Shown here one piece after another: positions 3,650 through 51,034 of a DNA stretch of 64,000 nucleotides. The notes under the pieces are model-generated. The model searched no databases. It saw nothing but the letters and a program-made list of their open reading frames with translations, and was not told where the DNA came from. Made by a program: the position numbers and the translations under genes. Position 1 is the first letter of the stretch, and each line of letters begins with the position of its first letter. The DNA lies in the NCBI GenBank assembly GCA_041483895.1, contig JBGPGO010000011.1, positions 91,390 to 155,389 on the forward strand. Reading direction: 5' to 3'. Source of the stretch: Fimbriimonadia bacterium. GTDB lineage: Bacteria > Armatimonadota > Fimbriimonadia > Fimbriimonadales > JABRVX01.

Positions 3650-3677
3650 GCTTTCATAAAGATCCTTTACCGATAGC
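3650..3677 (+). other. Possible degenerate copy of the 28-bp dif-like site
   Basis: GCTTTCATAAA-GATCCT-TTACCGATAGC; 21/28 identical to the 31893 copy, same orientation, between genes. Confidence 0.4.
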
Positions 3678-5210: not shown

Positions 5211-5490
5211 GATTTGGCTGGGCATTAAGCGCCCGCGGAAGTTCCTACCGGCGACGAACGGCAACAATATCCCCGAGTTCTATGGACTTCTAACCCCGCC
5301 CCGGCAACCCGTCAGCCAAGTAGCCGAACGCCCCTCTGTCGTACGGGTCTGAGCCACCGAATCGACCTGGAGCGTCTGATACTCAGGTTCCCAAGACTAG
5401 AATCATGATGCCCGTTGGACTGGACTTCTGCGTCCACCCCTGGTACATGTCGTGTTCGTTCGGGGAGCGGAGACGTGCAGTCCTGCGCGA

Positions 5491-5935
5491 GGCGACTTCG
5501 ACCCGGAGGCGAAGACGCCGGCGGTTCGCGGGAAGGGGCAGGCGCTGATGACGCTCAGCGATAAGGCCATCGAGGTGATCGGCGACTACCTGGCCTGCCG
5601 AGATGACGACCGACCGGAACTGTTCCTCTCCTGCGCTGGCCGGCTTTCAGGCATCTCCGGCGTCGGGCTGGCGTTCATGGCAAGGCACTACGCAAGGAAG
5701 GCCGGTATTCAGAACTTCAGCCTCCACAAGTGGCGGCACACGAGCATCACCGCCTACCTGCACGCCACAAACGGCGACGTGCGGGCGCACAGAAGCCCGC
5801 CGCCATTCTAAGCTGGAGACGCTGATGATCTACTGATCCCTGGATGCGACCGGTCTCCTGACCGAGTCGCAATATGGTGACACATGGGAGGACTTACAGG
5901 GACGGGCGACGAAGCTATTGTCGGAACTGGCCTAG
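5491..5935 (+). pseudogene. Xer-like tyrosine recombinase remnant (paralog of 32601..33254)
   Basis: DFDPEAKT..VRGKG..HKWRHTSITAYLHATNGDVR is nearly identical to the 32.6-kb copy; 5' truncated, frameshift near 5790, 40-bp insertion at the catalytic Tyr codon; resumes EDLQGRATKLLSELA*. Confidence 0.85.
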
Positions 5936-6140: not shown

Positions 6141-8741
6141 ATGCTAGCCGCTCTTATTATACTGTCGCTGCCGGCGTTCGACTTCATCAAGAGTGTCGAG
6201 GGCTGGCAGCCGTACCACGACGTGTCCCGGCTCTCGGGGACGCCCGAGGGAATGCTTATCGAGATCAGCGGCATGGACCCGTACGTGGGAGGCCCGCCGA
6301 GCGACTTCCCGGCTGGGCAAGCGCTGTGGGCAAAGCTGAGGCTCAAGTCCGATCAGGGCGGCGACGGACAGCTTTTCTGGTTTACCGACGCCAAGCCACC
6401 GAGCGAAGAGACGTCCGTGCACTTTAGCGTGCCGAAGCCCGGCGAATGGTGCGACGTGCGGATGAAGTTGCCGGCGCTGGGGCCAGGTACGCGCATCCGG
6501 CTCGACCTTCCAGGAACCGGCGGCAAGTGCGTCTTTGCATCGCTTGTATTTGAGCCGCGCAACATGCCGATAGCGCCGAAGTGGCTGCCACTTCTTTCGC
6601 CGCAGTACACGGACCCGCAGCAAGCTGCGTCGGGAAGTCTCGCCCTCGTACACGACGGCGAGACCTTCGGCGGTTTTCACCTGCTGGTGGACGGCGAACT
6701 CATGGCGATCGGAAACGATCGGCCGATGATCGGATACCTCCACGGCGAGGAGACGCGGTGGTTGGACGTGGCCAAAGTCGCCAAACCGTCAACTTGGCTG
6801 GAAACAAATGGCGTTGTGGCCGACGCGAAGTTCACGGATTCGGATGGCGCGAATTGGCACATCACGCAGGTTTTCATCGAGGGTAAACCCGGCAGCTTCG
6901 ATGTGGTCACAAGCGTCACGGTGGATCGAGATAGGGAGGTGGTCTTCCTTCCGATGCTGACACTGCTGCCGGGAGTTAACAGTTATGGAGCGAAGAAAGG
7001 CCACGCGTTGTTCGCCGGCCTCGAATATCTGGATGATGAGCCGAGCAGCTCCGAAGCGGACATCACCGGACCGGGCGCCAAGCGCCAGGTTCCGGATGCG
7101 GAGAAGATCACGATCCCGCTGATGGCGGTTCAGGCCAATGGCCACTATATCGGCGTCATCTGGGACCAGAAGCCGGAGTTTGCGGCCGTTTTCGATTCGC
7201 CGGACCGGCTGTTCGGATACGGTGGGCACGTCATGTCCCTCGTGTTCCCGGCGGGGGTCGAACGCGAGCCCGGGTCACTCGTTCCGTACGACACCGCGCT
7301 TCTCGCAGCAAACAAGCCGCTCGTCTTGAAAGCGACGATCATCGGCGGCAAGGGATCCAGCGTCGTTCCGGCGGTACGTCAGTACATTGCGCTGCGCGGC
7401 CTGCCCGTCGTGCCCAAGACCGGTTTGGACATGCAGGCCTACGTTCGGTTCGCGGCGGGTGGATGGCTAGATTCGCGTTTGCGCGAAGGCGACAAATATC
7501 GGCATGCCTACTGGCCCGGCGCCACGAGCTTCGGCCCGGGGGCAGTGGCAGGAGTCGGCGTATGGGAGGAGTGGCTGGCGCGGCAGACGACCGATCCAGC
7601 ATTGTCGAAACGTCTCGACGAATCGGCAAGAGGCGCTGTCGCGCAAGTTCAGCCTGCCGACACCAACGCCTCGGACGTCTCGCATGTGCGCTATCCCGTC
7701 GCTTCTCTTCTTTATGGGCATGTCGAGGAGAACGCCGAGCGCGCGCTCGCCGCCGGTCGTGAGCTTGTAAAGCGCTTTGGACCGAACGGCTCGCTTCTCT
7801 ACAAGCCCACCGGACCCGACTACGGCAAGACGCATTTCGCCAAGGACGCCAACGGACATACAGCCAGCGTCGTCCGCGCACTGCTCGAAGACGCCATCTT
7901 CTGCGGCGACGAGGCGCTGATTCGCGACGGCCTGCGACTGCTGCGTGCGATGGACAAGTTCGCAGACTCGGCCCCCCGCGGCGCGCAGACCTGGGAGGTG
8001 CCGCTTCACACCCCTGACATCCTGGCGTCCGCCGAGCTTGTGCGCGCGTACACCATCGGCTATGAGCTGACCGGAGAATGGCAGATGCTCGATAGGGCGA
8101 AGTACTGGGCGTGGACCGGCGTGCCGTTCGTGTACCTGGTCAACCCGACTCCGGGCCCCGTCGGGCTTTACGCCACAATCCCCGTCTTCGGCGCGACCAA
8201 CTGGACCTGGTCCTGGTTCGGCCTGCCCGTGCAGTGGTGCGGGCTGGTCTACTCGGACGCACTCTATCGGCTGGTCCGCCACGACCCTAGCGGCCCGTGG
8301 AAGCGGCTTGCCGACGGCATCACGGCTTCCGGCATTCAACAGAGTTTCCACGCGACCGACCACGACCTGCAGGGACTCCTACCCGATTCGTTCAACCTCC
8401 GCCCGCAGACGCGAAACGGCGTGGCCATCAACCCCGGGACCGTGGAGGCGAACGCCATTCGCCTGTTCGGCGGGCCGGAGCTATACGACTTCCGATCGCT
8501 GCGCAAAGCCGGGCTGCTCGTTCACGCCCCCGGGGAGATCGCGGGGATTCGCGACACCAAAGGCGCGGCGTCGTTTACGGTGAAGGGCTGGTCCAACCAC
8601 CCATACTATATCCTCATCTCCGGCCTGAAAAGGCAACCGACCGTGCGCTTGAACGGGCAGGCGGCCACTGACGCCGAGTTTGCGAACGGACGCCTAGTTG
8701 TGAAGGTCGAAGGCACCGCGAAGATCGCCATTGTCCTTTAG
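6141..8741 (+). CDS. Large secreted protein, possibly an (alpha/alpha)6-barrel carbohydrate-active enzyme
   Basis: 866-aa ORF with hydrophobic N-terminus and Trp-rich helical C-terminal half (AYELTG..ML.RAKYWA); function is a guess. Confidence 0.65.
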   Translation: MLAALIILSLPAFDFIKSVEGWQPYHDVSRLSGTPEGMLIEISGMDPYVGGPPSDFPAGQALWAKLRLKSDQGGDGQLFWFTDAKPPSEETSVHFSVPKPGEWCDVRMKLPALGPGTRIRLDLPGTGGKCVFASLVFEPRNMPIAPKWLPLLSPQYTDPQQAASGSLALVHDGETFGGFHLLVDGELMAIGNDRPMIGYLHGEETRWLDVAKVAKPSTWLETNGVVADAKFTDSDGANWHITQVFIEGKPGSFDVVTSVTVDRDREVVFLPMLTLLPGVNSYGAKKGHALFAGLEYLDDEPSSSEADITGPGAKRQVPDAEKITIPLMAVQANGHYIGVIWDQKPEFAAVFDSPDRLFGYGGHVMSLVFPAGVEREPGSLVPYDTALLAANKPLVLKATIIGGKGSSVVPAVRQYIALRGLPVVPKTGLDMQAYVRFAAGGWLDSRLREGDKYRHAYWPGATSFGPGAVAGVGVWEEWLARQTTDPALSKRLDESARGAVAQVQPADTNASDVSHVRYPVASLLYGHVEENAERALAAGRELVKRFGPNGSLLYKPTGPDYGKTHFAKDANGHTASVVRALLEDAIFCGDEALIRDGLRLLRAMDKFADSAPRGAQTWEVPLHTPDILASAELVRAYTIGYELTGEWQMLDRAKYWAWTGVPFVYLVNPTPGPVGLYATIPVFGATNWTWSWFGLPVQWCGLVYSDALYRLVRHDPSGPWKRLADGITASGIQQSFHATDHDLQGLLPDSFNLRPQTRNGVAINPGTVEANAIRLFGGPELYDFRSLRKAGLLVHAPGEIAGIRDTKGAASFTVKGWSNHPYYILISGLKRQPTVRLNGQAATDAEFANGRLVVKVEGTAKIAIVL

Positions 8742-8884: not shown

Positions 8885-8912
8885 CCTATCGAAAATCGCC
8901 ATTATCGGTACC
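8885..8912 (+). other. 28-bp dif-like recombination site, copy 1
   Basis: CCTATCGAAAA-TCGCCA-TTATCGGTACC, intergenic. Confidence 0.75.
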
Positions 8913-9027
8913 AACACAACATGTACCAAGGGTCTGCTAGCAAATCCAGTCGTAGGAGAAAACGTCGGCGCCCGCGCCTGGAATTGCTACGGCATACAGT
9001 TTCAGAAGGCTATGGTTCGGTGGCAGT

Positions 9028-13711: not shown

Positions 13712-13713
13712 CG

Positions 13714-17133: not shown

Positions 17134-17161
17134 CCTATCGAAAAGAACCATTATCGATAGG
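17134..17161 (+). other. 28-bp dif-like recombination site, copy 2
   Basis: CCTATCGAAAA-GAACCA-TTATCGATAGG, 8 bp from the stop codon of the CHAT gene. Confidence 0.85.
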
Positions 17162-20845: not shown

Positions 20846-20873
20846 GCTATCGAAAACAACCATTATCGATAGG
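20846..20873 (+). other. 28-bp dif-like recombination site, copy 3
   Basis: GCTATCGAAAA-CAACCA-TTATCGATAGG. Confidence 0.85.
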
Positions 20874-20951
20874 TCTTGGGATTGCTGCGATGCTGGCGTC
20901 CTGGCCGTACGCCGGCAGTATGGCCCGTGATAGCCGATCGTGGCGGCTACG

Positions 20952-21339
20952 CTACCCTGCGTGCGTCGTGGGAGCATCCTGAGCGGTTGTCTGGTTCGCC
21001 GCTTGCCAATGACTTGGGCGCTGTGGATGCAAGCGCTCTCCTTCCAGAGATACGTTCGGATAGTGCGGTAAGAGCAACTCGGACAGTTCGCTGATGCGCG
21101 GATCCGAGTGGAGCGTCTTCGGATTCGATAGCATGCCGACCATGCCGTCGGTCATCGCTTCGCACAAGGCGTTCTGTCCATGATATCGATGGCTGAGGTG
21201 CCGGGCGTATTCCTCAGAGCAGCCAGTCGGCCCGCCTTTGCCATCCCGCAAGGCGCTTTCCGCCGCTTCCCTTGCGAAGCCCACGGCCAACTCGGCAATC
21301 CTTCGCGCGACGGCCGCGTCGAATGCCGGCGGTGCTGTT
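20952..21339 (-). pseudogene. 3' remnant of a paralog of ORF 41770..42450, cut by IS21
   Basis: GGPTGCSEEYARHLSHRYHGQNALC..LSNPKTLH.DPRI.ELSELLLP is shared with 41770..42450; homology stops at the IS end. Confidence 0.85.
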
Positions 21340-21471
21340 TGTAAACGGCGGAGAGAAACTGTACCACTGAGGCGGCGGGTACCAACCCGAATCGCCGGAG
21401 CAAAATTGTACCGGCCTTGACGGCCTCTTCCAGACTTCGGATTGAAATCCGGAGGATGGGGAGGCGAAAGG

Positions 21472-22967: not shown

Positions 22968-22968
22968 G

Positions 22969-23724: not shown

Positions 23725-23900
23725 TCGCACGAACCTAGATCGGCTTGAAAAAGCCTGGCCTGTCCATTGAAGATTCAAACACGATGACTACGACCAGAAC
23801 AACCCGCCGCCTCAGTGGTACAGTTTCTCTCCGCCGTTTACAGCTCCAGTGCCTTTCGGCAGGTAGTGGCTTACATCACCATTGGAGGAGGCACTAATGA

Positions 23901-31523: not shown

Positions 31524-31892
31524 ATTCGGACTCCTTGCTAAGGGCTCTCGACGCTGGCAGTCCGCGCTAATTTCGGAATGCCAATCAACGCAATCCGATT
31601 ACCTGTTCGATGCCTCTTTCAGTTCGGATCAGCCCCAATGGCATAGGTGAGTGGTCCACTCACCCATCAATCTCCGTCAGTGCATAGTCAGACCGGCTCC
31701 CCAACAGTGCGGTCAGTCATGATACTAGGCACTGCTGCACGTTTGTAAGCAAGTCGAGATTTACTATGACCGCCAAATGTCTACGACTCCAATCCTCACA
31801 GGATTGTCTCATTTGATGCTGTCCATGGAAGGACTCTAAGAGGGACGTGACGTAAGAATCGCCTCTGCTGGCACCATCGTAAGGCAAAGAAC

Positions 31893-31920
31893 CCTATCGT
31901 AAAGAACCATTATCGATAGG
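31893..31920 (+). other. 28-bp dif-like recombination site, copy 4
   Basis: CCTATCGTAAA-GAACCA-TTATCGATAGG. Confidence 0.85.
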
Positions 31921-32056
31921 TCTTGGGATTGCTGCGAAGCTGGCGTCCTGGGAGGCAATTCCGCGGCAAGGCGGCTCAAAGGCGGTGGTTGGCGCAGAAT
32001 TACCACCGGTGGCGCTGTGAACGAGCCGTGTGCGGAACTTGGGCCTTCCTCGCTGT

Positions 32057-32461
32057 CTAGGCCAAGGTGGCGAAGATTAGTCGCTCGTGCCCAACAATGT
32101 GGCCGTCCACGAGAACGTCGAACCGATACCGGCCGGGCCCTTCAATAATGGTCGGTTCACCGAGACCAAAGGGGAGCTTCACCCATTGGCGACCCTCGAA
32201 AGCGTCGACGGGTGGATGCAGGTCCACATCGAGCGTCGCCGTCATGAGGCGGCTGCCGTCTTGGTTTATGAGGACAACGTCAACCTTAGCGGTCCGACCG
32301 CTTTCGCTCGGTTCATATTCAATCTCGGAAGCGAATGTCATAGGAGGCAATGGGCAAGGATATCGGCTCGGCGTGACCCGATCGAATAGGCCAACCAATG
32401 CCACGTTGCCGTTGGGCGATACTGATTCGTTTTCGCAGAGCTTACATAGTGTTGTTTTCAT
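32057..32461 (-). CDS. Small beta-sandwich protein (DUF6941-like)
   Basis: LC......G..ALVGLFDR...P...PGRYRFDVLVDG pattern. Confidence 0.65.
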   Translation of the reverse strand: MKTTLCKLCENESVSPNGNVALVGLFDRVTPSRYPCPLPPMTFASEIEYEPSESGRTAKVDVVLINQDGSRLMTATLDVDLHPPVDAFEGRQWVKLPFGLGEPTIIEGPGRYRFDVLVDGHIVGHERLIFATLA

Positions 32462-32600
32462 AGCGATCCAGTTCCGTCAATGACATCCGGCTCCTTCAAA
32501 CCTTCTCCGCTAACGTTCGCGCTTCTCGGGATGCAGCCGCTCTCCATCCAGACTTGTCGTGGGCAACACGATCTAAGTTACTGGCGTACAGTCGGCCCGC

Positions 32601-33254
32601 ATGGAGTGGCCGGAAACCGGGCGCCAGGTCCAGCTCAGGGCGAACAGGACGGGCTTCCCGGACACGAAGCACGACGATCAGGTGCATAGCTTAGGCGTGG
32701 CCTTTCGGACGGCAATGCATTATACTGACGGCACCACCACCGTCAAGGGCAAGCGCGACGCGGCGATCCTTCGGCTGTTCTGGGAGCTGGCGCTGCGGCG
32801 TGCCGAGATCTGCAATCTTTCGCGGGCCGACTTTGACCCCGAGGCGAAGACATTGGCGGTTCGCGGAAAGGGTAAGGGGACGCAGAAGGTGCTGATGACC
32901 CTGAGCGATAAGGCCATCGAAGCGATCGGCGATTACTTGGCCTGCCGGGACATCGACCGACCGGAACTATTCCTCTCTTGCACACGCGACGGCGATGGCC
33001 AGCTGTCCGGCATCACCGGGGTTGGGCTGGCGTTTATGGTGAAGCACTACGCGAAAAAGGCGGGAATCTCAAATTTCAGTCCGCACAAGTGGCGGCACAC
33101 GAGCATCACCGCCTACCTGCACGCCACAAACGGCGACGTACGGGGCGCTCAGAAGCTCAGCCGCCATTCTAAGCTAGAGACGCTGATGATCTACGACGAC
33201 GCGCGTGAGGACCTTCAGGGACGCGCAACAAGGTTGTTGTCGGATTTGGCTTGA
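32601..33254 (+). CDS. Xer-like tyrosine recombinase, catalytic domain only (N-terminal binding domain apparently lost)
   Basis: RDAAIL..LALRRAEI (R), RGKG (K), SPHKWRH (HxxR), SRH (H), MIYDD (Y); only 217 aa with a non-homologous N-terminus. Confidence 0.8.
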   Translation: MEWPETGRQVQLRANRTGFPDTKHDDQVHSLGVAFRTAMHYTDGTTTVKGKRDAAILRLFWELALRRAEICNLSRADFDPEAKTLAVRGKGKGTQKVLMTLSDKAIEAIGDYLACRDIDRPELFLSCTRDGDGQLSGITGVGLAFMVKHYAKKAGISNFSPHKWRHTSITAYLHATNGDVRGAQKLSRHSKLETLMIYDDAREDLQGRATRLLSDLA

Positions 33255-33262
33255 CCGGACCG

Positions 33263-33688
33263 TCACGAGCGCTTGGATTTCAGCCGGTCAGGATTGAATC
33301 CCAGTTTGCGCACTACCGTTTGCCTGCTTTTCTCTGCTCTCGCGGTCAGTTCTCGGCGTCGTTCCCGAACGTAGTCCTTCACAATCGTATAGCCGCCTTC
33401 GAAGCCGTATTCGTCGCATAGGAGTTGATAGATCCCGACGGCGGTGCAACCACTTCCGAAAACACCCTGGGCTTCTGCTTCGAGGATCTGATCGACAATT
33501 GGCGCTACGGCATCCAGCTTCGATTCTCTCGTCGCTTGATCCTGCCGATATCCTGGTGGACGCTCGTACGTCAGCATCTTGCGGACAGTGTCTCTGTGCA
33601 AGCCAAACTCCCGCGCTACCTCCCGAATGCTGAGGACCTTCTTGTTGATCGCCCTTTTGACGTCCTTGTAGACATCAGCCGCGTACAT
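33263..33688 (-). CDS. Stand-alone IstA-type N-terminal HTH protein
   Basis: SIREVAREFGLHRDTVRKML..PPGY..GFEGGYTIVKDYVRER aligns with the IstA N-terminus at 21472; no DDE domain. Confidence 0.75.
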   Translation of the reverse strand: MYAADVYKDVKRAINKKVLSIREVAREFGLHRDTVRKMLTYERPPGYRQDQATRESKLDAVAPIVDQILEAEAQGVFGSGCTAVGIYQLLCDEYGFEGGYTIVKDYVRERRRELTARAEKSRQTVVRKLGFNPDRLKSKRS

Positions 33689-33866
33689 GCGCCCTCTCGG
33701 TTTCGACGCTCATGGCGGCATTTTACCGGCTGTAAACACGGGAGAAAAATGCAGCCACGGGCGGGGAGCAAGAGTGTGCCACTTATCGGCGAGTTGATCG
33801 GGCCAAACTCAACCAGGGCCGAGAGTGCAGAGGTAACATCCATACTTCCATCAGAGGAGGGAGTTA

Positions 33867-34658
33867 TTGGGTGCGATGCAAATGATCCCATGCAAGAGAT
33901 TCCGAGCAAGTATGTGGAAGCGAACAAGAGAAGTTTCGGACGAGTTCATTTATACCGTCCGACTAACCATGATGCATACGGCGCTCGGCGTTTTCATCGA
34001 CCGTGCCAAGCAGGACGACGATCCCAACAAGTGGGAAGCTCAGGATATGCCCGAAAAGCTCGATCTGTTCGCCCGTCAGATGCATCTCTACGGCGAGATA
34101 ATCAATCAACTTTTCGGCGATACCGCTCCACGTAGAGGAGCTTGGCCTCACGAAGTAGCAGATGCCAAGTTCCGCATCTGGGCTAAGGTTATCGCAGACG
34201 CCAACCTGCAACTCAGTCAAGCCCGTAAGGAATTGCTCGAGGGAAAGGATGCTGCGTGGGATATAGTAAAGGCTGTTCGCAACCAACTGGGCGCGCATTT
34301 CGACATCGAAGTCATCCGTAGCGGGCTTGATCGCTGGCAAGAGCAACCACCTGACCAAAAGGCACACGCTTTCTACACGGGCCTGACTGAGGGCGACGAC
34401 GCCGATCACATCTTTCCCTTATCGCAGGAAATCATCGGATCTTTCCTCTGCGGTCTGGGTACGGAAGACCAATATTTTGACCGCATGGACAAGCTAATTC
34501 CTCCTCTACACAACTACTTGAAAATGCTGATCGCCGACCGGATCATGGCACTTCAGAAAAGCGGAGAACTGGAGTTGATTGAAGGTGAAATGCACGCTGA
34601 CATAGGTCTATGGCACCCGGACCACTACAAACGAATGATTCGCGATATGACCTCATAG
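33867..34658 (+). CDS. Helical protein with HEPN-like motif
   Basis: VKAVRNQLGAHFD fits the R-N-x3-5-H HEPN RNase signature; GGAGG upstream. Confidence 0.55.
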   Translation: MGAMQMIPCKRFRASMWKRTREVSDEFIYTVRLTMMHTALGVFIDRAKQDDDPNKWEAQDMPEKLDLFARQMHLYGEIINQLFGDTAPRRGAWPHEVADAKFRIWAKVIADANLQLSQARKELLEGKDAAWDIVKAVRNQLGAHFDIEVIRSGLDRWQEQPPDQKAHAFYTGLTEGDDADHIFPLSQEIIGSFLCGLGTEDQYFDRMDKLIPPLHNYLKMLIADRIMALQKSGELELIEGEMHADIGLWHPDHYKRMIRDMTS

Positions 34659-34686
34659 CGGCATTTTACTGGCCAACCGCCATTGA

Positions 34687-34714
34687 CCTATCGAAAATCG
34701 CCATTATCGATAGT
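34687..34714 (+). other. 28-bp dif-like recombination site, copy 5
   Basis: CCTATCGAAAA-TCGCCA-TTATCGATAGT. Confidence 0.85.
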
Positions 34715-34852
34715 GAAAATCCGGGCAAGACAATTACGAGACTGCGGCAAGCACCCATAGGCTTGGAGCGATCCACAGGAATTTGCTCAGGGACTCACCA
34801 TCCCGGGCGGCAACCGAGGCACGGGCCTGATCCGGTCATCTCTCCAACGATG

Positions 34853-35545
34853 CTAGCCCTGAGCGAAGATAATGGTTGTGTCAGGGGAAACCACCAGATG
34901 GTCTTCGTCAAACTCCTTGTACACGTCATAGGGACCGTCGATTCGGAGAAGCAACGGTGCGTCTGATGCAATGCCCGGTCCGATGATTACGCGCGTCGCA
35001 TCATTCAACGGCCCTGGCTCAAGAACATGCACTCCGTTCCATTTTCGATCGCTTTCTCGAATCAACGGTGGAGTTTCAAGAAGTCTCTTGGCAAAAAGGT
35101 AGGGATTTCGAACCAGGTTGGCAACCAGTCTACCTTGAGAGTTGTCTAGTTCAATAGTCGCGTTGATTCGCACGAGTCCTATTTCCTCGTCGATACCCAA
35201 AGTAAAGCTGACTCCGCTTGGCAGGTCCACATCTACGCGATCTGGTAATGCCCGAGCACAAACGAGTGAGCTGGGAGCACCTCCGTTCAACCGAACTGGC
35301 ATGAGTTGTGGGCCATGTCCAAAGGGGTACATGACGACAACAGTGAAGTCCTCGGCTAGCGAGTATTTGGTTCTTTCCCGCCAGTCATTTGGTTCGAACA
35401 CTAACGAGAGGAATTCGTCCCAAGAACAGCTCCATGACCAAGGATTCGTCGGTGGGCGCTCTTTCCAGGTTTCCGTTACGAGATTAGCGTTACGTGCCTG
35501 CCTTTTCATGATCTTACCTCGAGGGGTTCGAGTTAGCTCGGACAA
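34853..35545 (-). CDS. Hypothetical protein (distant paralog of 35533..36210)
   Basis: Overlaps the upstream gene; shares W-x3-C-x-W, LVxxPY and RV..GP motifs with it. Confidence 0.65.
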   Translation of the reverse strand: MSELTRTPRGKIMKRQARNANLVTETWKERPPTNPWSWSCSWDEFLSLVFEPNDWRERTKYSLAEDFTVVVMYPFGHGPQLMPVRLNGGAPSSLVCARALPDRVDVDLPSGVSFTLGIDEEIGLVRINATIELDNSQGRLVANLVRNPYLFAKRLLETPPLIRESDRKWNGVHVLEPGPLNDATRVIIGPGIASDAPLLLRIDGPYDVYKEFDEDHLVVSPDTTIIFAQG

Positions 35546-36210: not shown

Positions 36211-36286
36211 GATTCCTCCGGTTCATTTGCTAAACACAGATTAAGAACCGACGACAGAAAGGGATTCTTACGACAAATGGCGGAAA

Positions 36287-39373: not shown

Positions 39374-39381
39374 TGTCGCAG

Positions 39382-40332: not shown

Positions 40333-40334
40333 GA

Positions 40335-41522: not shown

Positions 41523-41659
41523 TGGTGATTGCGCCCATTATATCAAAAACCGCCGAATCCGGCATCAGCCTGGAGTGATCTTCAAGATTTGGGGCTTTGC
41601 CCCAGCGAATTGTTAAAACCTACCGCAAGTCTTGCCGAAGGGAGTTGTGAAGTGACTTA

Positions 41660-41687
41660 CCTATCGAAAATAACCATTATCGATAGG
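41660..41687 (+). other. 28-bp dif-like recombination site, copy 6
   Basis: CCTATCGAAAA-TAACCA-TTATCGATAGG, at the left end of the core element. Confidence 0.85.
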
Positions 41688-41769
41688 TCTTTGGATTGCT
41701 GCGACGTTGGAGCTTTTGGCCGTACATCGGCGGCTGACTGCTGGCTGTGTACCGAGAATGGCTGCTGCG

Positions 41770-42450
41770 CTACTTAGGGCGCGTCGTGGGCGCATCCTGA
41801 GCCATCCCTTGCTTCTCACCTTGCCACTGGTCTGGACGCTTCGGATGCATACGCTCTCCATCCAGAGAGACATTCGGATAGCGCGGTAAGAGCAACTCGG
41901 ACAGTTCGCGGATGCGCGGATCCGGGTGGAGCGTCTTCGGATTCGATAGCATGCCGACCAAGGCGTCGGTCATTGCGGCGCACAAGGCGTTCTGGCCGTG
42001 ATAGCGATGGCTGAGGTGCCGGGCGTATTCCTCGGAGCAGCCGGTCGGCCCACCGCATCCATCCCGCAAGGCGCAGTCGCCCGCTTCCCGCGCGTAGCCC
42101 ACCGCCAGCGTTGCAATCCTTCTAGCGACGGCCGAGTCGAATGCCGGCGGAGTTGTTTTGCCGCCCCACCCCACGTGCGGCGCTCCCCAGAAGTGTTCGC
42201 ACGCCGCCTCAAACGTCTCAAATCGAATATCTACGAATCTTCTTGCGGCCACGTCGAAGGTGACGAGTCCTTTCGTGCAAGCGCTCCAGGCGGCGATGAA
42301 CGCGATCACGTCGGGGTGGATTGGCTTCTCTTTCCGCGGCGGCGGGAGCCGTGCCTCGATCTTCCTAAGTTGGCGTTCCAGCGAGTTCAGACTTCGCACT
42401 TGGTGCCTCTGGCGTCTTCCAACCGTAGCCGCTCTGCAACGCGTTTGCAA
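41770..42450 (-). CDS. Element-associated hypothetical protein
   Basis: Coding supported by conservation in the second copy at 20952-21339; start uncertain. Confidence 0.7.
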   Translation of the reverse strand: MQTRCRAATVGRRQRHQVRSLNSLERQLRKIEARLPPPRKEKPIHPDVIAFIAAWSACTKGLVTFDVAARRFVDIRFETFEAACEHFWGAPHVGWGGKTTPPAFDSAVARRIATLAVGYAREAGDCALRDGCGGPTGCSEEYARHLSHRYHGQNALCAAMTDALVGMLSNPKTLHPDPRIRELSELLLPRYPNVSLDGERMHPKRPDQWQGEKQGMAQDAPTTRPK

Positions 42451-42725
42451 ATTCGATCCATCTCCCGCGCTGATTTCGGATCGGCCCTGGGTGGTGGTAT
42501 CGAGTAATCAAAGCCTTCGACGCGTTCGCCACGCGCCATGCGTTCAAGATCGACGACACTTAGCGATTCAAGCCGCTCGTCACCACATCGCGGAAGCGTA
42601 GCCAAGGACGCCAATTCCTGAACTGTCCATCTCTTGAGGTCCGGCATTGGCATCAGCTCGAAGCTGGTTGCCACGAGCTGAGCCGCCTTATGCTCCAAAA
42701 GCTTCAATGTCTTTCGGAAGCGCAT
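42387..42725 (-). CDS. Hypothetical protein
   Basis: TGATG coupling with the upstream HTH gene. Confidence 0.55.
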   Translation of the reverse strand: MRFRKTLKLLEHKAAQLVATSFELMPMPDLKRWTVQELASLATLPRCGDERLESLSVVDLERMARGERVEGFDYSIPPPRADPKSAREMDRICKRVAERLRLEDARGTKCEV

Positions 42726-43123
42726 CAGTTCAGCGAATATGTTCTTGCGCCCATGGAATGGAGCTGCTCCTCAATAGCTTCGACCTGGGCATCGATGTTC
42801 AGATACTCCGAAAGCTTCGTCATCTCCGACAGGATGAGACGCGCGGCGCTGATGGCGACCATCTCGTTCTCTGATTGGAGAAGCTGGCCCGCGCGGATTG
42901 CGGCGGCCGCAGCGGTGGCAGCAAGCACCCCAGCAGCTTGGGCCATCATGTCGTTGCGGGCCTTCGTGACCGCTTTCTGGAACTCCGGCTCATTGAGGCG
43001 TCGCGCCACAGTTCGTGCGGACAGTCCTGTCTGGGTCGCTGCGCCGCGTACGCTCTTACCGTTCGCCAGGGCGAAGATGAGGTCCAGTTCCTTCCCCTTG
43101 TAAGTGTTGTCAATTCGTGGCAT
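42725..43123 (-). CDS. HTH protein resembling small-terminase-like proteins of mobile elements
   Basis: ALANGKSVRGAATQTGLSARTVARRLNEPEF..AISAARLIL. Confidence 0.7.
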   Translation of the reverse strand: MPRIDNTYKGKELDLIFALANGKSVRGAATQTGLSARTVARRLNEPEFQKAVTKARNDMMAQAAGVLAATAAAAAIRAGQLLQSENEMVAISAARLILSEMTKLSEYLNIDAQVEAIEEQLHSMGARTYSLN

Positions 43124-43132
43124 ATCAGGTTC

Positions 43133-44428
43133 CTACCCTTCCTCCAATTTCGCTTCGAGTCCCATGTCTTTCAGCCGCTGCAACGAAACCGCTGCATAGA
43201 TTTCGCTGACTTCAAGGGCGTAACAAACGCGGCCCAGCCTCTCGGCCGCAACGATTTGGGTTCCGCTGCCCGAGAACGGTTCGAAGACAAGATCGCCGCG
43301 CTCAGTGTGCTGCTGCATCGGAATCTCGAAAAGTTCAGTCGCTTTGACCGTTGGATGCTCGATTGAGTCCGCCTCGCCTCTGTTCGGATACGTCCACACA
43401 TTGGGTGGGAAGTCCGTGGCAACCCGTCGCGGTTCATTGCCTCGGATCCAACCGAAGGCGCAGCTTTCGGACTTGTTCATGTAATACGAATAGCCGAGAA
43501 CCGGACAGGTTTTGACCCAATGGATCGTCTGGTGCCAGAACGCGCCATGCTTAGCCCACACGGCTTCCAGAAGCGCCTGGTGGCGTTGCGCGTGCCAGTG
43601 ATACCAAGGAGCAGACTTGTCGATGGCGACTTCGATTGCCACCTTGATGAAGCCGTCGTAGAGGCCGGCGATAGAGTCGCCGTCGTCCCAGGACAATCCA
43701 TAGGAGCCGGACCAATCCTTGTTCTTGTCCTTTTTCTTGCCTGCTTTGACCAGCTTCTTATCTTCCCATGAGGAAGGATGATTCGTGCCGTCGTAATCGA
43801 CGCCGTAAGGCGGATCGGTAACGAACGTGACGGCACGTTTCCCGTCCATGAGGCGGCGAACATCATCGGCGTTTGTGGAATCTCCGATTAGGAGTTTGTG
43901 GGGACCGATGTGCCAGAGTTGGCCGCGCTTGGTTGCCCACGCTTTTTGAAGTTCTGCAGCCGCATCAAGTCGTGGCTCAGGATCTTCACCGACCGGAACA
44001 TCGTCTTGAAACGACTTGAGGAGCGCGTCAAGATCGCTGTCGTTGAAGCCGGTGCCAGATAGTCCCTCGCTAGTGGCCGCAAGCTCTTGGAGCAGTTCTG
44101 CCAACGCCTGATCATCCCAGGTCGAGATGTCGGAGAGCCGATTGTCCGCGATCATAATCCTCTTGGCTTCTGCGTCCGTCACGGAGATCCAAACGACGGG
44201 TACCTGTTCCAATCCCTCTTCAATCGCGGCGCGGAGTCGATGATTTCCAATTAGTACATGGTTAGTACCCTCTTGTACGATCAAGCTACCGAAAAAGCCG
44301 TTTTCGCGGATTGACTCCCCGATTGCCTGCGTCTGGCCACGGCGGGCATTCTGCGGATGCTCGATGAGCTCGCCAATTGGGACCATCTGATAGTCTTTGT
44401 TAATGATTGCTGGTGTCGTCTTTCCCAT
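43133..44428 (-). CDS. ParB-like domain fused to N4/N6 DNA methyltransferase
   Basis: HPQNAR..SIRENGF..GNHRLRAA..IADNR (ParB-like); catalytic TDPPY; HPTVK; SAM-binding EPFSGSGT. Confidence 0.9.
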   Translation of the reverse strand: MGKTTPAIINKDYQMVPIGELIEHPQNARRGQTQAIGESIRENGFFGSLIVQEGTNHVLIGNHRLRAAIEEGLEQVPVVWISVTDAEAKRIMIADNRLSDISTWDDQALAELLQELAATSEGLSGTGFNDSDLDALLKSFQDDVPVGEDPEPRLDAAAELQKAWATKRGQLWHIGPHKLLIGDSTNADDVRRLMDGKRAVTFVTDPPYGVDYDGTNHPSSWEDKKLVKAGKKKDKNKDWSGSYGLSWDDGDSIAGLYDGFIKVAIEVAIDKSAPWYHWHAQRHQALLEAVWAKHGAFWHQTIHWVKTCPVLGYSYYMNKSESCAFGWIRGNEPRRVATDFPPNVWTYPNRGEADSIEHPTVKATELFEIPMQQHTERGDLVFEPFSGSGTQIVAAERLGRVCYALEVSEIYAAVSLQRLKDMGLEAKLEEG

Positions 44429-44431
44429 TCG

Positions 44432-44788
44432 TTAGTTCCTTGAAATAATTGTGCGTCGGAGCTTTCTGGCGGATCCCGACATTTCGGCTAACGTCGCGGA
44501 CACACTCTGGCCACCCGCCCAATACCAATAGCGCGGAAGGGAGTTGGCCGGGATCACCAGGTCACCCCTCGTGTTGAAATAGGGCCGCGCCGGGTACTTC
44601 GACTGGTCGTCTTTCTCCTCGGCGAGGCGGTGTAGGTATTTTATGAGTCTCGGCTTGTGGCTCACCACAAGGGTTCGAATCTCGTCTGTGATCTCGCCAG
44701 GAGGCGCACTGATCCGTATCGATTCGCCTTCCAATGCAAGCCGGATCCTCTTGCATGCTAGGTCCTGTAGAAGTTCTTGCACCTTCAT
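44432..44788 (-). CDS. Small protein following the primase (TubC-N-docking-like)
   Basis: MKVQELLQDLACKRIRLALEGESIRISAPPGEIT..HKPRLIKYL; starts 1 bp after the primase stop. Confidence 0.65.
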   Translation of the reverse strand: MKVQELLQDLACKRIRLALEGESIRISAPPGEITDEIRTLVVSHKPRLIKYLHRLAEEKDDQSKYPARPYFNTRGDLVIPANSLPRYWYWAGGQSVSATLAEMSGSARKLRRTIISRN

Positions 44789-44789
44789 C

Positions 44790-47384
44790 TCACACCACCG
44801 CAGATTCCTCTTGTTTGTCGAAAACCCGACCAAACTGACCGGCAGGGTCAGCGTCTTCATCAAATTGGTCGGGTTGGTCGGGTTCTTCCGACTCAAACGC
44901 TGCAGCATCAAGATAGAGAACTTCGGTCCTCTTTCCTCCGACGGTCCTGCGAACGGTCAGCACCTCGCGATTTTTGTCAACTTCCTGGAGATATCCCTTT
45001 TCATGCAGGCGCTTGTGAAGCGTGCTGATCCCGATCTTGATTCCATCGGCTCCGCTGCACGCGGCCTGGGCACATTGAAATGATGCGTCCGGCTGCAGGA
45101 AGACATCGTCTCCGTCCACCCATCCAATCCGTGTCCCCTGCGGCCGCCACTCGGTGTTCGTGTATCCTGACGAGGTAACTTCGTGCGGTCTCCATCCCCA
45201 TGCGCCCGCGTCCAACGGTGCATCGCCCTCCATTGAAGCAACGTGAGCCTTTCCGCTGCTGATCGCCGCTATGAGAAGCTGGATGTAGCGATTAGCAGAC
45301 TCAGCCCCAAGTTGATATGCCGTCTGCGCCCGTCCAGCTTCCATGAGACGCGTCCAAACCTCTGTCCATATCTGCTGTTCTTGTTCTGTGGTAATGAAAC
45401 TCGAGGATGCGGCAAAGCGCAGGAATATCTGCATCCCGGCTCCCAGATTGGCAACCAGCTCCGGCGTGCGAAGATGCAGAGACCCCTGAAGGATCTGGCT
45501 ACGAAGACTGGTTCGGCGCTGTTCGAGCTCCTCCTGAACCCGGTCGTAGTGCTTCGCCACCCACACCAGAAACGCCGCCATCGATCTCGCATATGAGCCC
45601 TCCCTCGCAAGCTGCTGGCAAACAGTGAGTTTCTTCTTGGAAACCGATCGGCGGTTCAGCTCAACGATCAGCATCCGCGGTCGAAGTGAGGTTCCGCCTG
45701 GTACATCCTCTCCCGACGACATAAGCGTGCCACGCGGCGGTCTCGGTTCCTTCTGATTGGCATCCGCATTCAGGCGTTGACGTCCCGAGTTGTTGGCCTG
45801 CGCCCTAATCAGGCGGTCTGCTTTTGCGTGAAGAGATTCGACTTCGCGCGACGATCCAACCGGCGCAAAGTCGTCAACCGTGAGGAGCGCGTCTTTGGCA
45901 CGGCACGCGAGGTCTTCCAGCGAATTGGCGGTCGACGACCAGTTGCCCGGCAGCTTTAGCCTCGACATTTCGGGTCCATAGTGTTGCTGGGCTAGAGCGC
46001 TGAGCTCGGACTTCAGAGAGCCGGTCGGCCCCACGAGAAACAGCGTGAAATCGGTTGTGCCCAGACAAGCGCGGTAGACCGTTGCAAGCAGGGGGGCCAT
46101 GATGCGGATGTCGGCCAGCGTAAGCAGATCGAGGCTCGCGAGCACAGCCTCCTTAGCCTCATCTCCAGCTGGCGGCTCCGGCAATCTAAAACGTTCGAGC
46201 GGTCCGAAGAGCCGCACTTGGACATCTAACGGTCCGTCCGCTCCAATCGCGCCTCCTGCATGCAGATATGCCCACTTCCCATCATCCATTTGCCGCCAAC
46301 CCAGATGGGAGTAGACCCGTGTCACGGCAGGTTCATCGGACAGCAACTGGATTGCCTCTCGGAATCGGTCCTTGGCGCCCATTCCCGCAGAAATTGAGGC
46401 GAGCGGCCCCAATTGTTCATTGACCCAGTTCATGCTCGGAAATCCAGAGACCGGGACGGTAAATCGCTTGCTCTCGCCGCGAAACCTCGATTCGATTTCA
46501 AGAGCGCGACGAATGGTGATGCCATCGTCTTCGATGATGTCGCCGACGATCTTTGCGATGAAGTTGGCAAGCCGAGAGGGAATCGTTCCTTCGCGCGTCT
46601 GCCGGTTGTGGAATGTGCCCTCGTCGGTCATCTCGTATTCACAAGTCTTGACTGTCTCTTGGCTCGGAGGTAACGGCCGCAGCTGTGATTCTGCGAGCGC
46701 AAGGAGATCGTCGATACCATGACCTTCCGTAATGAAATCATCGAGGCCAATTTTCCGACCAAACTGACCGTGAGGAAGATAGACGTAATGGACGCGGGCT
46801 CCGCGCTGCTTCAGAAACGCACCCAGCCGATCGACCGCGCTATGCACTTCCTTCTTGTGCATCGCGTCCGAATCGAAGCAGATGTTAACGTCGCGCGGCT
46901 GGTCGTTGCCGTCCTTGAGGGCGATGCTGTCCCAATCGGGGAGCGCTGTCTTGCCGAAGTACTCGTTCTTTCCCCTCCAGTTCCAGACGCCGATGAGGGC
47001 GATGCAGCAGAGGCCGAGCGTGATCGCGCTGTCAGCTTTTTTTGCGCCTTCAGTGATCCAGAGCGGCACTGCCGGGTCTTTGATCTGTTCCTGAATGAAT
47101 GGATGGACGTCGATAGCCATTGAGGAACCAAATGGGAACTCGTATTTGACGATCTTGCCGTTCTTTTGGCGCGGTTCATCGGGCCGGTGGTGCCTGAGAG
47201 CGATTTCCCCATGAACGCCCCAGATTGGGACTAGGAGCGTCGGGACGCTGAGTTGAGAAGCTCCAAAGCCAAGGCGCTTGAGTTCGGCGGCGGTCTTAAC
47301 GGACCGGTACCCTCGTGCCTTGATGACTTCGTCGGAAATCGCTGACGCCTCGAGCATCGCCTTGTGGTGCGGCAGCAGGTCCAT
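44790..47384 (-). CDS. Primase-helicase replication protein (DUF3854 Toprim-like plus DUF927/P-loop-like)
   Basis: WITEGAKKAD, ICFDSD, KIGLDD (Toprim-like); HLGW; GPTGSLKS, LTVDD; ATG coupled to the excisionase stop (TGATG). Confidence 0.85.
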   Translation of the reverse strand: MDLLPHHKAMLEASAISDEVIKARGYRSVKTAAELKRLGFGASQLSVPTLLVPIWGVHGEIALRHHRPDEPRQKNGKIVKYEFPFGSSMAIDVHPFIQEQIKDPAVPLWITEGAKKADSAITLGLCCIALIGVWNWRGKNEYFGKTALPDWDSIALKDGNDQPRDVNICFDSDAMHKKEVHSAVDRLGAFLKQRGARVHYVYLPHGQFGRKIGLDDFITEGHGIDDLLALAESQLRPLPPSQETVKTCEYEMTDEGTFHNRQTREGTIPSRLANFIAKIVGDIIEDDGITIRRALEIESRFRGESKRFTVPVSGFPSMNWVNEQLGPLASISAGMGAKDRFREAIQLLSDEPAVTRVYSHLGWRQMDDGKWAYLHAGGAIGADGPLDVQVRLFGPLERFRLPEPPAGDEAKEAVLASLDLLTLADIRIMAPLLATVYRACLGTTDFTLFLVGPTGSLKSELSALAQQHYGPEMSRLKLPGNWSSTANSLEDLACRAKDALLTVDDFAPVGSSREVESLHAKADRLIRAQANNSGRQRLNADANQKEPRPPRGTLMSSGEDVPGGTSLRPRMLIVELNRRSVSKKKLTVCQQLAREGSYARSMAAFLVWVAKHYDRVQEELEQRRTSLRSQILQGSLHLRTPELVANLGAGMQIFLRFAASSSFITTEQEQQIWTEVWTRLMEAGRAQTAYQLGAESANRYIQLLIAAISSGKAHVASMEGDAPLDAGAWGWRPHEVTSSGYTNTEWRPQGTRIGWVDGDDVFLQPDASFQCAQAACSGADGIKIGISTLHKRLHEKGYLQEVDKNREVLTVRRTVGGKRTEVLYLDAAAFESEEPDQPDQFDEDADPAGQFGRVFDKQEESAVV

Positions 47385-47614
47385 CAGGACTCGCCCCTCC
47401 CGCCGTTCGAATCCGCTGGTGCAAGACCGGCCTGCTGGTCGATCCATCTGAGCAGCCCTTCCCGGTGGACCCGGACGGCGCGGCCGAAGCGAACGGTTGG
47501 CCAGACCCCGCCTGCGCAAAGCTCGTAACCGAGCGCGCGGGAGACGCCCGCGAGTTGCGATGCGGCCGCAACGCTGATCAGAATCGGTTTATCTTCGTCC
47601 ACGTTAATCGCCAT
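47384..47614 (-). CDS. Excisionase-like HTH protein
   Basis: LISVAAASQLAGVSRALGYELC..G.WPTVRFGRAVRVHREGLLRWI. Confidence 0.85.
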   Translation of the reverse strand: MAINVDEDKPILISVAAASQLAGVSRALGYELCAGGVWPTVRFGRAVRVHREGLLRWIDQQAGLAPADSNGGRGES

Positions 47615-47770
47615 TTTATCACTTCTCGCACGGTTTTTGGAACAAAATACGTATCTAGTCCACCACGATACTTGACGTTTATGGAGCCCACCGTATAGAC
47701 TAGTGTATCTGGAAGCGTTGAATTCAGGAATGGTGATACCGTAGAATTTACGTCACAAGGAGGCAAAAGC

Positions 47771-48661
47771 ATGAAAAAGGCGGGCAGAACGCCGGAGCCG
47801 ACAACGTTTGAAGAGGGCCGTTTTGGTCCGTATGCCTTTTTCTGGGACGTCGCTGTGGACGGCTATCGTTGGGAAACTGAGCTCAAAGAGTTCGGAAATA
47901 CGAGCGCACTCGCTTACCTCGTCGAATGTCCCGAAGGTGGTTACACAACGTACACGCCGTTGAAAATCCGAGACCTTCACCGACGGTTCGCGAAACTCTC
48001 TGAGAGGACGAACGGAATGTTGCGCGAGGAGATTCTGGACTTCGCCAACGAATACGGTCTCCTCGGTTGTCCTCGAGATCTGTGGAAGTTCGAAGGGGAT
48101 CGCGGCGAGCTCGCTTATTTTGGCGAGCGGGACTCCGACTGGCGAATACGATTCCATGAGTTCACATGCCTATTGCGCATCTGGGACTTCATCAGGACTG
48201 ACGATAAGCCCGCGCTGAGGAAGATAATCCAGTGGTCGGATGATGGGACGAATGTTTGGGTCAAGGGATTTGCTCCTTCACCTACGCCAGCGTGGAATCT
48301 TGCTGAAAAGGGATCGCCAAGAACCGGATATCTAATTGATCAGTGGCCACGTCTTAGCGTCATCGCTCCTGCGAAGCACTTCTTGTACCGAGAAATCAAT
48401 CGAGTCTTGGCGGAACAAGCAGCGCCACAGATATTCACCGATCGACCCGGTGAATCCCTAATCATGCCCAAGTCGTTGCTCGGCGCGATCTATGTTCTTT
48501 TTGCGCTGGAAGTCGGAGGCATCGCCCAGCCTCCTATCCAGTGTCCCGGATGCGGAGAGTACTTTGTTCCCCACCATGGCAGGCAAAGGCATTGCAGCGA
48601 TAGTTGTCGCCAGAAAAGTTATACACGTAGGAAGAAGGAGGCGCTCAAAGACAATGAGTAA
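47771..48661 (+). CDS. Putative regulator with C-terminal CGNR-like zinc finger
   Basis: FANEYGLL; CPGCGEYF..RQRHCSDSCRQK; divergent from the excisionase and overlapping the integrase start. Confidence 0.75.
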   Translation: MKKAGRTPEPTTFEEGRFGPYAFFWDVAVDGYRWETELKEFGNTSALAYLVECPEGGYTTYTPLKIRDLHRRFAKLSERTNGMLREEILDFANEYGLLGCPRDLWKFEGDRGELAYFGERDSDWRIRFHEFTCLLRIWDFIRTDDKPALRKIIQWSDDGTNVWVKGFAPSPTPAWNLAEKGSPRTGYLIDQWPRLSVIAPAKHFLYREINRVLAEQAAPQIFTDRPGESLIMPKSLLGAIYVLFALEVGGIAQPPIQCPGCGEYFVPHHGRQRHCSDSCRQKSYTRRKKEALKDNE

Positions 48662-49787
48662 GCGAGGACCGAACGAGGGTTCGATCTATTTGAGGAAGGA
48701 CGGCCGCTGGGCCGCATCGATTGAAATTGGATTTGAAAATGGTATACGGCGGCGCAAGCATTACTTGGGGAGAACGCGTCGCGAGGTGCAGGAGAAGCTG
48801 AATGAGGCGGTGTCGGCAAAGAGTCAGGGAATGCCGGTTTCGGTAAAGCGCCAGACGGTCGCACAGTTTTTCAATGACTGGTTGGAGAACACAAAGAAGC
48901 CTTCTGTTCGGCAACGGACATATGAGTCATACGAGTCGGTCGTTCGGCTGCACATTGTTCCAGCAATTGGGCACATCCAGCTCGCCAACCTCACACCCCA
49001 AGACGTCACGCGCCTCATAAACAAGAAGCTACAGTCAGGCCAATCGCCGACTACCGCTCTCTACGTCAAGCGCGTCCTCGGCATGGGCTTAAAGCATGCG
49101 ATGATGTGGGGCGAGCTTGGGAGGAACGTCGCGACGCTAGTGCCATCGCCGAAAATAGAGCGAGAAGAGGTGCGGGCGCTTTCGCCTGAGGAGACCCGGC
49201 AGTTCTTAGCGGTTCTCAAAGGTGATCGGACCGAAGCGCTGTTCGTGGTCGCCACATCCTTGGGCCTTCGATTAGGCGAAGTCCTTGGCTTGTCCTGGGA
49301 TGACGTCGATCTTGAGGGCCAGAAGTTGAGCGTGCGCAAGCAGCTACAGCGAATCGGCGGAAAGCTTGTCCGCACAGAGCCGAAGACACGACGGTCTAGG
49401 CGGACGATCGGTTTACCCTCGATTGCGGTGGACGCATTGCGCGAGCACCGGATCCGGCAATTCGAAGAGCGCCTGATCGCAGGTGAGCGTTGGGTCGACA
49501 CAGGCCTGATTTTCACAACGACGATCGGTACGCCATTCGAACAACGCAACGTCCGACGTCATCTAGATCAGCTACTTGACAGAGTCGGCCTGCCGCACAT
49601 CAACCCGCATGCCCTGCGCCACACGGCAGCGAGCCTGCTACTCGCGCAGGGTGTTCACCCGAGGGTGATCATGGAGACGCTCGGCCACTCCCAGATCTCA
49701 ACGACAATGAACCTCTATGCGCACGTCATGGGCGAGGTCCAGCGCGAGGCGGCAGAGTCCATGGATCGAATATTGAGATCTGGATAG
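48654..49787 (+). CDS. int: Tyrosine integrase (phage/ICE type)
   Basis: NEGSIYLRKDGRW arm-binding domain; GLRLGEVLGLSW, PKT, HALRHTAAS, LGHS, NLYAH. Confidence 0.95.
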   Translation: MSKRGPNEGSIYLRKDGRWAASIEIGFENGIRRRKHYLGRTRREVQEKLNEAVSAKSQGMPVSVKRQTVAQFFNDWLENTKKPSVRQRTYESYESVVRLHIVPAIGHIQLANLTPQDVTRLINKKLQSGQSPTTALYVKRVLGMGLKHAMMWGELGRNVATLVPSPKIEREEVRALSPEETRQFLAVLKGDRTEALFVVATSLGLRLGEVLGLSWDDVDLEGQKLSVRKQLQRIGGKLVRTEPKTRRSRRTIGLPSIAVDALREHRIRQFEERLIAGERWVDTGLIFTTTIGTPFEQRNVRRHLDQLLDRVGLPHINPHALRHTAASLLLAQGVHPRVIMETLGHSQISTTMNLYAHVMGEVQREAAESMDRILRSG

Positions 49788-49806
49788 GGCCTCATAGAGT
49801 GCACGT

Positions 49807-50958: not shown

Positions 50959-51034
50959 TGGCGCGCCCGGAGGGATTCGAACCCCCGACCCCCTGATCCG
51001 AAGTCAGGTGCTCTATCCACTGAGCTACGGGCGC
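50959..51034 (-). tRNA. tRNA-Arg (anticodon TCG)
   Basis: GCGCCCGTAGCTCAGTGGATAGAGCACCTGACTTCGGATCAGGGGGTCGGGGGTTCGAATCCCTCCGGGCGCGCCA; full cloverleaf with encoded CCA. Confidence 0.97.

Follow-up and report, generated by a model that had tools for sequence, protein, structure and literature searches.

Two recombinase genes in a 64,000-nucleotide stretch of a Fimbriimonadia bacterium genome (contig JBGPGO010000011.1; this whole stretch is called the window) are probably dead remnants of an accessory recombinase belonging to a family of tRNA-targeting integrative elements. To judge from sequence comparison, the recombinase family is likely to be the cognate enzyme of 28-bp sites composed of two 11-bp arms around a 6-bp spacer (11-6-11). 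The probable explanation, drawn partly from analogy with known systems, is that an element-encoded resolvase drives the exchange of cargo at spacer-matched sites, much as dif modules are exchanged, and serves the window in trans.

The better preserved gene is an open reading frame (ORF) of 217 residues (32601..33254, + strand). Its product matches a single Pfam family, PF00589, and contains an Xer-like tyrosine recombinase catalytic domain with the full catalytic set: R66, K90, H162-x-x-R165, H189, and Y198 within the IYDD motif. Such a domain had been recognized in the sequence-only reading, which also took the enzyme to be distinct from the arm-type integrase near 48.5 kb (25% identity, E=0.004) and the N-terminal half to be missing from both window copies; all three points were confirmed. 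The SAM-like core-binding domain is absent from both copies and is present (PF02899) in the intact copy P0002. The ORF begins with ~44 foreign codons, which are fused in frame with the recombinase domain. Codons 17–41 (32649..32723, + strand) resemble a terminase large subunit, with 64% over 25 residues to the end of a 520-residue phrog_38 protein on contig C17 of the same genome, and mark a deletion junction. Recombinase homology starts at 32734, and the true remnant (32734..33254, + strand) corresponds to approximately residues 143–315 of the 315-residue intact form, with 81–85% nucleotide identity to the intact copies. No Shine-Dalgarno-like sequence precedes the ATG, whereas one is present at the intact copies. 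The ORF is most simply read as a deletion chimera of a terminase-like fragment and a recombinase catalytic domain. The cargo that follows (33263..34658) consists of an IS21 transposase remnant (33263–33688, − strand), which begins 9 bp past the recombinase stop codon, and an ORF of 263 residues (33867–34658, + strand). Nothing similar was seen in the corresponding slot of four other copies.

The second gene is a pseudogene (about 5458..5935, + strand) that has lost its 5′ half. It had been described as a decayed and near-identical paralog. The decay is plain, in that the frame shifts near 5790, the Tyr codon is followed directly by a stop and extra sequence has been inserted, but the near identity is not found, as the two copies share 79.5% of nucleotides over 400 bp and 76% of amino acids over 117 residues. 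Both window copies are 78–86% identical to copies on other contigs and are no closer to each other, which leaves the idea of a recent duplication unsupported. The cargo between the pseudogene and the next site is an ORF of 866 residues (6141..8741, + strand) without a match in Pfam, NCBIfam, PHROG or PADLOC.

Eight copies of the recombinase gene were found in the genome: three intact, one 5′ half and four 3′ remnants. The intact copies, two on contig C7 and one on contig C4, encode 311–315 residues with all catalytic motifs. The 5′ half is on contig C1, and the 3′ remnants are on C6, on C2 and, twice, in the window; the truncation points differ. As three intact copies exist, service of the window sites in trans, which had been suggested as an option, is feasible. 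In all four copies with a 5′ end, an inverted site with the spacer GGGCCA, termed the home site, lies 16–17 bp before the ATG. A promoter scan upstream of the C4 copy returned one weak match. On contig C1 (195159–200500), a SIR2-SAVED protein and an E1-E2-like protein (CBASS-like) come after the 5′-half recombinase, and a Druantia DruE-like helicase lies beyond a site with the spacer CGTCCA.

In a quick tree, whose outgroup had a long branch and which, not being rooted against Xer, was read only for the clade of own copies and for branch lengths, six own copies grouped together (SH-aLRT 100), with the proteins of two same-family genomes next to them; of the six, the 5.5-kb pseudogene had the longest branch. 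The closest named protein is that of a Fimbriimonadia bacterium, which makes an Armatimonadota host probable. Close homologs are mostly of 315–332 residues with a SAM-like domain. The intact P0002 scored below every NCBIfam cut-off considered: XerC (95.5 against 335), XerD (77.5 against 330), XerA (93.7 against 220) and XerS (61 against 267), and likewise against the IntI profile TIGR02249 (22 against 265). The family was compared with XerH, XerS and XerA by profile. Separate XerC-like and XerD-like genes (partial sequences) are carried by the host. The gene has a patchy distribution (3/41 relatives and 25/401 genomes of the phylum, with eight copies here), which is not the single-copy, vertical pattern of Xer.

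The window contains six 28-bp sites, all on the + strand: 8885..8912 (spacer TCGCCA), 17134..17161 (GAACCA), 20846..20873 (CAACCA), 31893..31920 (GAACCA), 34687..34714 (TCGCCA) and 41660..41687 (TAACCA). These six had been listed before; a degenerate seventh (3650..3677, + strand, spacer GATCCT), with a score of 22.8 compared with 32–39 for the others, had been missed. It had also been stated that the next site downstream of each recombinase copy (8885 and 34687) has the same sequence, the other four being of the type NAACCA. This is correct, and the 24 identical bases at these two sites had no counterpart of any kind in 100 shuffles.

A matrix built from the arms of the six window sites, with the spacers unscored, identified 28 sites above a score of 19 in the genome. 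From 30 rows, C2:250473 (17.6) was kept and C6:52894 (15.0) was dropped to give a working set of 29, which leaves out two sites found by the family model only (C5:72473 and C7:126620). Three shuffled genomes gave 0, 0 and 2 matches above a score of 14. The 29 sites fall into eight clusters, seven of which are situated downstream of a tRNA 3′ end at a distance of up to 20 kb (2.4 expected at random, p=0.0006). Only 3/29 are inside a long ORF, compared with 242/300 random positions, and the 11-6-11 sites bound accessory modules.

Spacer positions 4 and 5 are CC in 29/29 sites (background 0.15 per site), whereas positions 1–3 vary, and five spacer types cover 23/29 sites. The types follow a fixed order: CGTCCA, GGGCCA, recombinase gene, TCGCCA, NAACCA, element backbone. 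GGGCCA is the first site upstream of the gene and CGTCCA the second in 4/4 copies each, TCGCCA is the next site downstream in 5/6, and NAACCA is at the backbone end in 5/5. None of 200,000 shuffles reached these four counts together, a result that is overstated in that the elements share descent and the positions were picked after the pattern had been seen. The order was seen in one genome, the relatives being too fragmented. The link between recombinase and TCGCCA that was noticed in the window thus holds genome-wide, for five of the seven copies with a 3′ end, the seventh having no downstream site. It had further been proposed that the recombinase and this site mark one end of a repeated unit. 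This was not borne out: intact units extend upstream through the inverted GGGCCA home site and the CGTCCA site, the half that has been lost by both window copies.

The cargo between the sites does not follow the spacer order. No cross-match was found by blastn and tblastx among five slots between the gene and TCGCCA, or among six slots after TCGCCA, and the four slots between CGTCCA and GGGCCA gave one weakly homologous pair (C1 and C4). On these comparisons, the cargo did not descend along with the sites. It includes type I restriction-modification, kdp, RND efflux, CHAT-TPR, NB-ARC and large surface proteins. Homology between segments begins at the sites; at the four backbone-side sites, the right flanks are alike (18–32 of 45 matches) and the left flanks are not (7–13 of 45).

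Several slots of the window were inspected individually. One (9028–16442) is occupied by an RND efflux operon, with an outer-membrane protein, a membrane-fusion protein and an AcrB/CusA-type pump, together with an MFS transporter. A PDZ-TPR-CHAT protein of 1194 residues (17170–20754) forms a single-gene module between sites 17134 and 20846. The slot of a putative 11-kb circle, considered below, contains a beta-helix repeat protein of 2540 residues (23901–31523, 52% G+C). Between 34687 and 41660, a run of unannotated genes (36287–41522) includes a CHAT-NB-ARC-TPR protein of 1064 residues, possibly an NLR-like defence module, for which PADLOC gave no match at E 1e-8.

Site 8885 is a hybrid, with a TCGCCA-type left half and an outer right flank of the home-site (GGGCCA) type. 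The 45 nucleotides that follow it (8913..8957, + strand) are like the upstream, presumed promoter-side flank of the intact genes. They match the four home-site flanks at 24.2 of 45 positions on average, compared with 23.0–27.3 among the home sites themselves and at most 16.2 for the other 24 sites. By its composition, site 8885 records a crossover between unlike spacers. It would have arisen either by a flip of the gene and its cargo between two inverted sites, or by a fusion of two elements. Such a flip would separate the gene from its presumed promoter.

The complete backbone of an element (41770..49787) adjoins site 41660. Read from tRNA-Arg(TCG) (50959..51034, − strand), the probable integration site of the island, it comprises the arm-type integrase (48492–49787, + strand), a DUF3854/DUF927 primase-like gene, a ParB-DNA methylase gene, a TerS-like gene and two ORFs of 226 and 112 residues, and it includes a TubC_N protein. 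Between the integrase and the tRNA, a SocA/Panacea antitoxin gene is accompanied by a partner of 131 residues (49807–50846). Short palindromic REP-like repeats are present at 51064–51334 and 57330–57396, with further copies on C10 and C27. No att repeat of at least 13 nt of tRNA-Arg was found downstream, and the left end of the island is therefore undefined.

The backbone end recurs at 20846 and 31893, and also on contigs C4 and C7. At 20846, a remnant of the 226-residue ORF (20874..21340, − strand) is 82% identical in nucleotides to 41658–42158. It is cut by an IS21 element (21340–23842) with perfect 41-bp terminal inverted repeats. At 31893, a DUF6941 gene is found with a short backbone remnant (32057..32552, − strand), in the same arrangement as beside a GAACCA site on C4. 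Because the backbone end recurs, the window must contain parts of three or more related elements arranged in tandem. Contig C4 has a 40-kb stretch with tRNA-Glu at one boundary and a 15-nt repeat of the tRNA end at the other; the four sites and the intact gene of C4 are within it. At its tRNA-Glu end (C4:168633–170282), a split serine-recombinase-like gene, recognized by translation, takes the place of the tyrosine integrase, so that more than one integration module carries the site block.

The association of the enzyme with the site was examined across the family. A site of 11-6-11 layout, starting 28–142 bp upstream of the gene, was found at 92/125 full-length homolog loci drawn from metagenome, genome and viral collections; these same windows had served to train the model, and many of the loci are kin. 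Control windows gave 0/108, 0/123 and 0/125. Among the held-out loci of the phylum, 7/26 had an upstream site above threshold, and at four more a site was found in another place within 1.5 kb. The expected association of full-length homologs with the motif was not refuted by the first figure, though few of the held-out loci show it. The link between the enzyme family and the site is strong, but it is not universal. The arms show palindromic co-variation across 57 chosen sites that were aligned, with 114 cells changed on both sides compared with 43.8 in shuffles and 11–26 in slid controls. Two genomes of the same family contain 3 and 2 sites, with arms that match their own home site and are unlike those of this genome; one of these sites closes the same tRNA-integrase-methylase-TerS backbone. 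The spacer GGGCCA recurs, with different arms, in the home site of a distant genome (L211:3852, G461:C100) and in a same-family genome (L201:5857, G001:C7). With a covariance model, for which at most 121 candidates were scored per genome, one site each was found in 8/24 genomes of the phylum with the gene, and none in 38 genomes of the same order without it.

Matches to the protein were found at 114 places in 109 plasmid records, most of them from cyanobacteria; identity is 39–47% for the 40 records that were listed. A hand count that provides lower bounds was made in 22 genomes (20 of them named cyanobacteria), which have 54 gene matches, several being in the training set. It gave at least 32 distinct sites, at least 29 of them within 1 kb upstream of the gene. 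On the complete plasmid pCC7120epsilon, there is one strong site, and it is at the recombinase gene. Plasmid pANL has the gene and no site by this model. An inversion in pANL was considered and dropped, as the model places no site at the recombinase gene and no paper was found in the open-access literature. One gene with one adjacent site per replicon is the default of the family; it holds for the relatives, but not for this genome or pANL. This pattern fits a plasmid resolvase with its presumed resolution site, and the many-site state of this genome is an exception. Extra sites within 10 kb were found at 1/92 loci, a 32-kb plasmid-like contig of Ammoniphilus resinae (G422:C30, loci L203/L204). 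It encodes ParA, a relaxase, a coupling protein, a PemK-like toxin-antitoxin and one family recombinase, and has four sites ~8.5 kb apart with four different spacers, of which TGTCCA is common with this genome. The gene was found in 1/18 genomes of the Ammoniphilus order. In a search of viral contigs for more multi-site elements, none matched P0005.

The following course of events is proposed. Several decayed members of the element family would have been fused in tandem in the window. The intact enzyme of 315 residues would derive from a family of plasmid resolvases in which a single 11-6-11 site, placed directly before the gene, is the rule. A single enzyme is presumed to bind both arms of a site, and the home site would probably be used by the enzyme to repress its own gene. 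By analogy with pdif sites, two sites would recombine mainly when their 6-bp spacers match; as the spacers along one element differ, deletion between neighbouring sites would be avoided. Two related elements would form a cointegrate through matching sites, and its resolution at a second matching pair would swap the cargo. A rare crossover between unlike spacers with a common CCA half would leave hybrids such as site 8885. The window sites would be served only in trans. Direct repeats with identical spacers persist in the window (8885/34687 and 17134/31893), and deletion must therefore be rare. The cargo after the gene differs without a site between the two, and this border therefore needs another mechanism.

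An unlikely alternative is that each segment was a one-site circle, a plasmid or cassette, that entered a site already present, in the manner of integrons or IMEX elements. In this model, only the CCA half would be matched and one strand pair exchanged, replication would resolve the junction, and the spacer order would be a relic of descent. Stacking of this kind is in keeping with the invariant CC beside the variable positions 1–3, with the common orientation of all seven window sites, with the unlike-spacer crossover required for site 8885 and with the family default of one site per replicon. It leaves unexplained, however, both the recurrence of only a few spacer types at set positions, in clusters that are not linked and whose cargo is unrelated, and the inverted sites upstream of the gene.

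It is improbable that the sites are operators or boundary marks, bound by the recombinase or another protein of the element with no present crossover, the cargo being turned over by homologous and illegitimate recombination. The overlap of the home site with the presumed promoter region and the persistence of matched direct repeats would agree with this, as would the data from other samples. The stretch was found in 23 sediment metagenome runs, with no RNA run among those listed, and four other sediment samples were compared over window positions 30501–50500. Most loose ends at sites in these four samples were other sites of the same genome, and no countable new junction at the sites was found in them. 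In one contig of run X3, the left flank of 31893 is continued by the right flank of 20846; that paralog accounts for 8/8 listed differences and is in agreement with the total of 15. The junction is that of an excised 11-kb circle. It was not counted as new because the two sites share 33 identical bases, enough for a switch by the assembler. At 31952, run X8 has a 29-nt loose end past the shared flank of 31893, which by eye is unlike the paralogous flanks compared and possibly belongs to another element variant. No listed piece from the four samples bridged the 32.7-kb junction with 31 bases on both sides. Operators would not be expected to have the conserved spacer bases and spacer classes of crossover sites, nor do they account for the homology that begins at the sites or for the catalytic motifs retained in all three intact copies.

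It is quite improbable that the sites are used by the host XerC/XerD, either unaided or with one arm taken by the element enzyme, as with the Acinetobacter pdif sites or the Tn6022 XerC-like system. The 11-6-11 layout, the XerC-like and XerD-like genes of the host and a precedent (PMC11014353, in its available text) speak for it. Both arms, however, change together across phyla and between close relatives, and this co-variation with the element enzyme argues against catalysis by the host pair, as does the lack of any site in the 38 same-order genomes without the element gene. Most improbable of all is that the 217-residue ORF is a working recombinase that serves the local array, like FimB/FimE, which consist of a catalytic domain only: its frame is open, with all catalytic residues, and its branch is short (0.027 compared with 0.032–0.044 for intact copies), but its N-terminus is terminase-derived, it is preceded by neither a Shine-Dalgarno-like sequence nor a home site, other copies are truncated at differing points, one to the 5′ part only, and close homologs mostly have the full length with the SAM-like domain.

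Exchange by an element-encoded enzyme at spacer-matched sites was compared with known systems. As in the integrons, an array of sites in one orientation is found between cargo genes near a tyrosine recombinase. The attC sites of integrons are hairpins, whereas the present sites are simple 28-bp sequences that separate multi-gene blocks of 0.5–13 kb, and the IntI profile is far from matched. The cyanobacterial plasmid proteins annotated as 'integrase/recombinase XerC' are of the same family and have the same upstream site layout, with one site per gene compared with ~29 sites for eight gene copies here. They are possibly the 'Cyan' subgroup of PMC8138268, which in the available text is named without a site; dif prediction is stated in that of PMC3025954 to have failed in cyanobacteria.

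The closest resemblance is to the dif modules and dif module islands of Acinetobacter, in which 28-bp 11-6-11 sites with recurring 6-bp spacers also bound accessory blocks (PMC13141974, PMC12907356, PMC6449649, as far as their available text goes). Spacer-matched exchange of modules through cointegrates is described in the accessible part of PMC13141974, where the shuffling is called unique to Acinetobacter and dependent on the host Xer. Tolerance at one spacer position is found there, comparable to NAACCA here. As those sources have it, however, the Acinetobacter sites are asymmetric and are used by the host XerC and XerD, whereas the arms here are near-symmetric and catalysis would be by the element's own enzyme. 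Neighbouring sites alternate in orientation there, in contrast to the seven window sites; the fixed spacer order and the tRNA-linked islands as carriers are further differences within what was available of that literature. XerS/difSL and XerH/difH likewise pair one enzyme with a palindromic site that has a central hexamer, gene and site being linked, but in the text available from PMC2731167 they are single chromosomal terminus systems, whereas the present one is patchy, multi-copy and mobile, with a separate Xer-like pair in the host. The XerC-like protein of Tn6022 and its dif-like site are again a linked pair on a mobile element, proposed to diversify islands; there, according to the accessible part of PMC11014353, one hybrid site, which needs host XerD, lies downstream of the gene.

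The system behind the remnants is real and is probably a new form of dif-module-type shuffling with a dedicated enzyme. A more far-reaching interpretation, put forward tentatively and with some doubt, is that it is a natural cassette exchange. In engineered cassette exchange with heterospecific lox or FRT sites, spacers are unlike on one molecule and matching between molecules. The spacer logic would be the same here, although the engineered system is a laboratory construct. A plasmid-derived resolvase with ordered, incompatible spacers would provide numbered slots, and cargo for defence, efflux, ion transport and surface proteins would be swapped between islands. The enzyme may also flip its own gene off the promoter, thereby switching itself off and leaving hybrids like 8885. 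The same interpretation would give the recognition site of a widespread family of cyanobacterial plasmid recombinases with many natural arm variants. No natural case of heterospecific-spacer cassette exchange was found in the available text of the open-access literature, nor, in the open-access literature (subscription papers being outside its scope), a description of this site, of ordered spacers or of resolution by the cyanobacterial plasmid family.

If true, the element-encoded version with ordered spacers is a separate route to modular genomic islands. The pairs of enzyme and site are small, and a two-site reporter in E. coli would allow them to be tested. Dozens of natural enzyme and site variants in the family are candidate orthogonal recombinases, and the family also offers a candidate resolution site for cyanobacterial plasmids.
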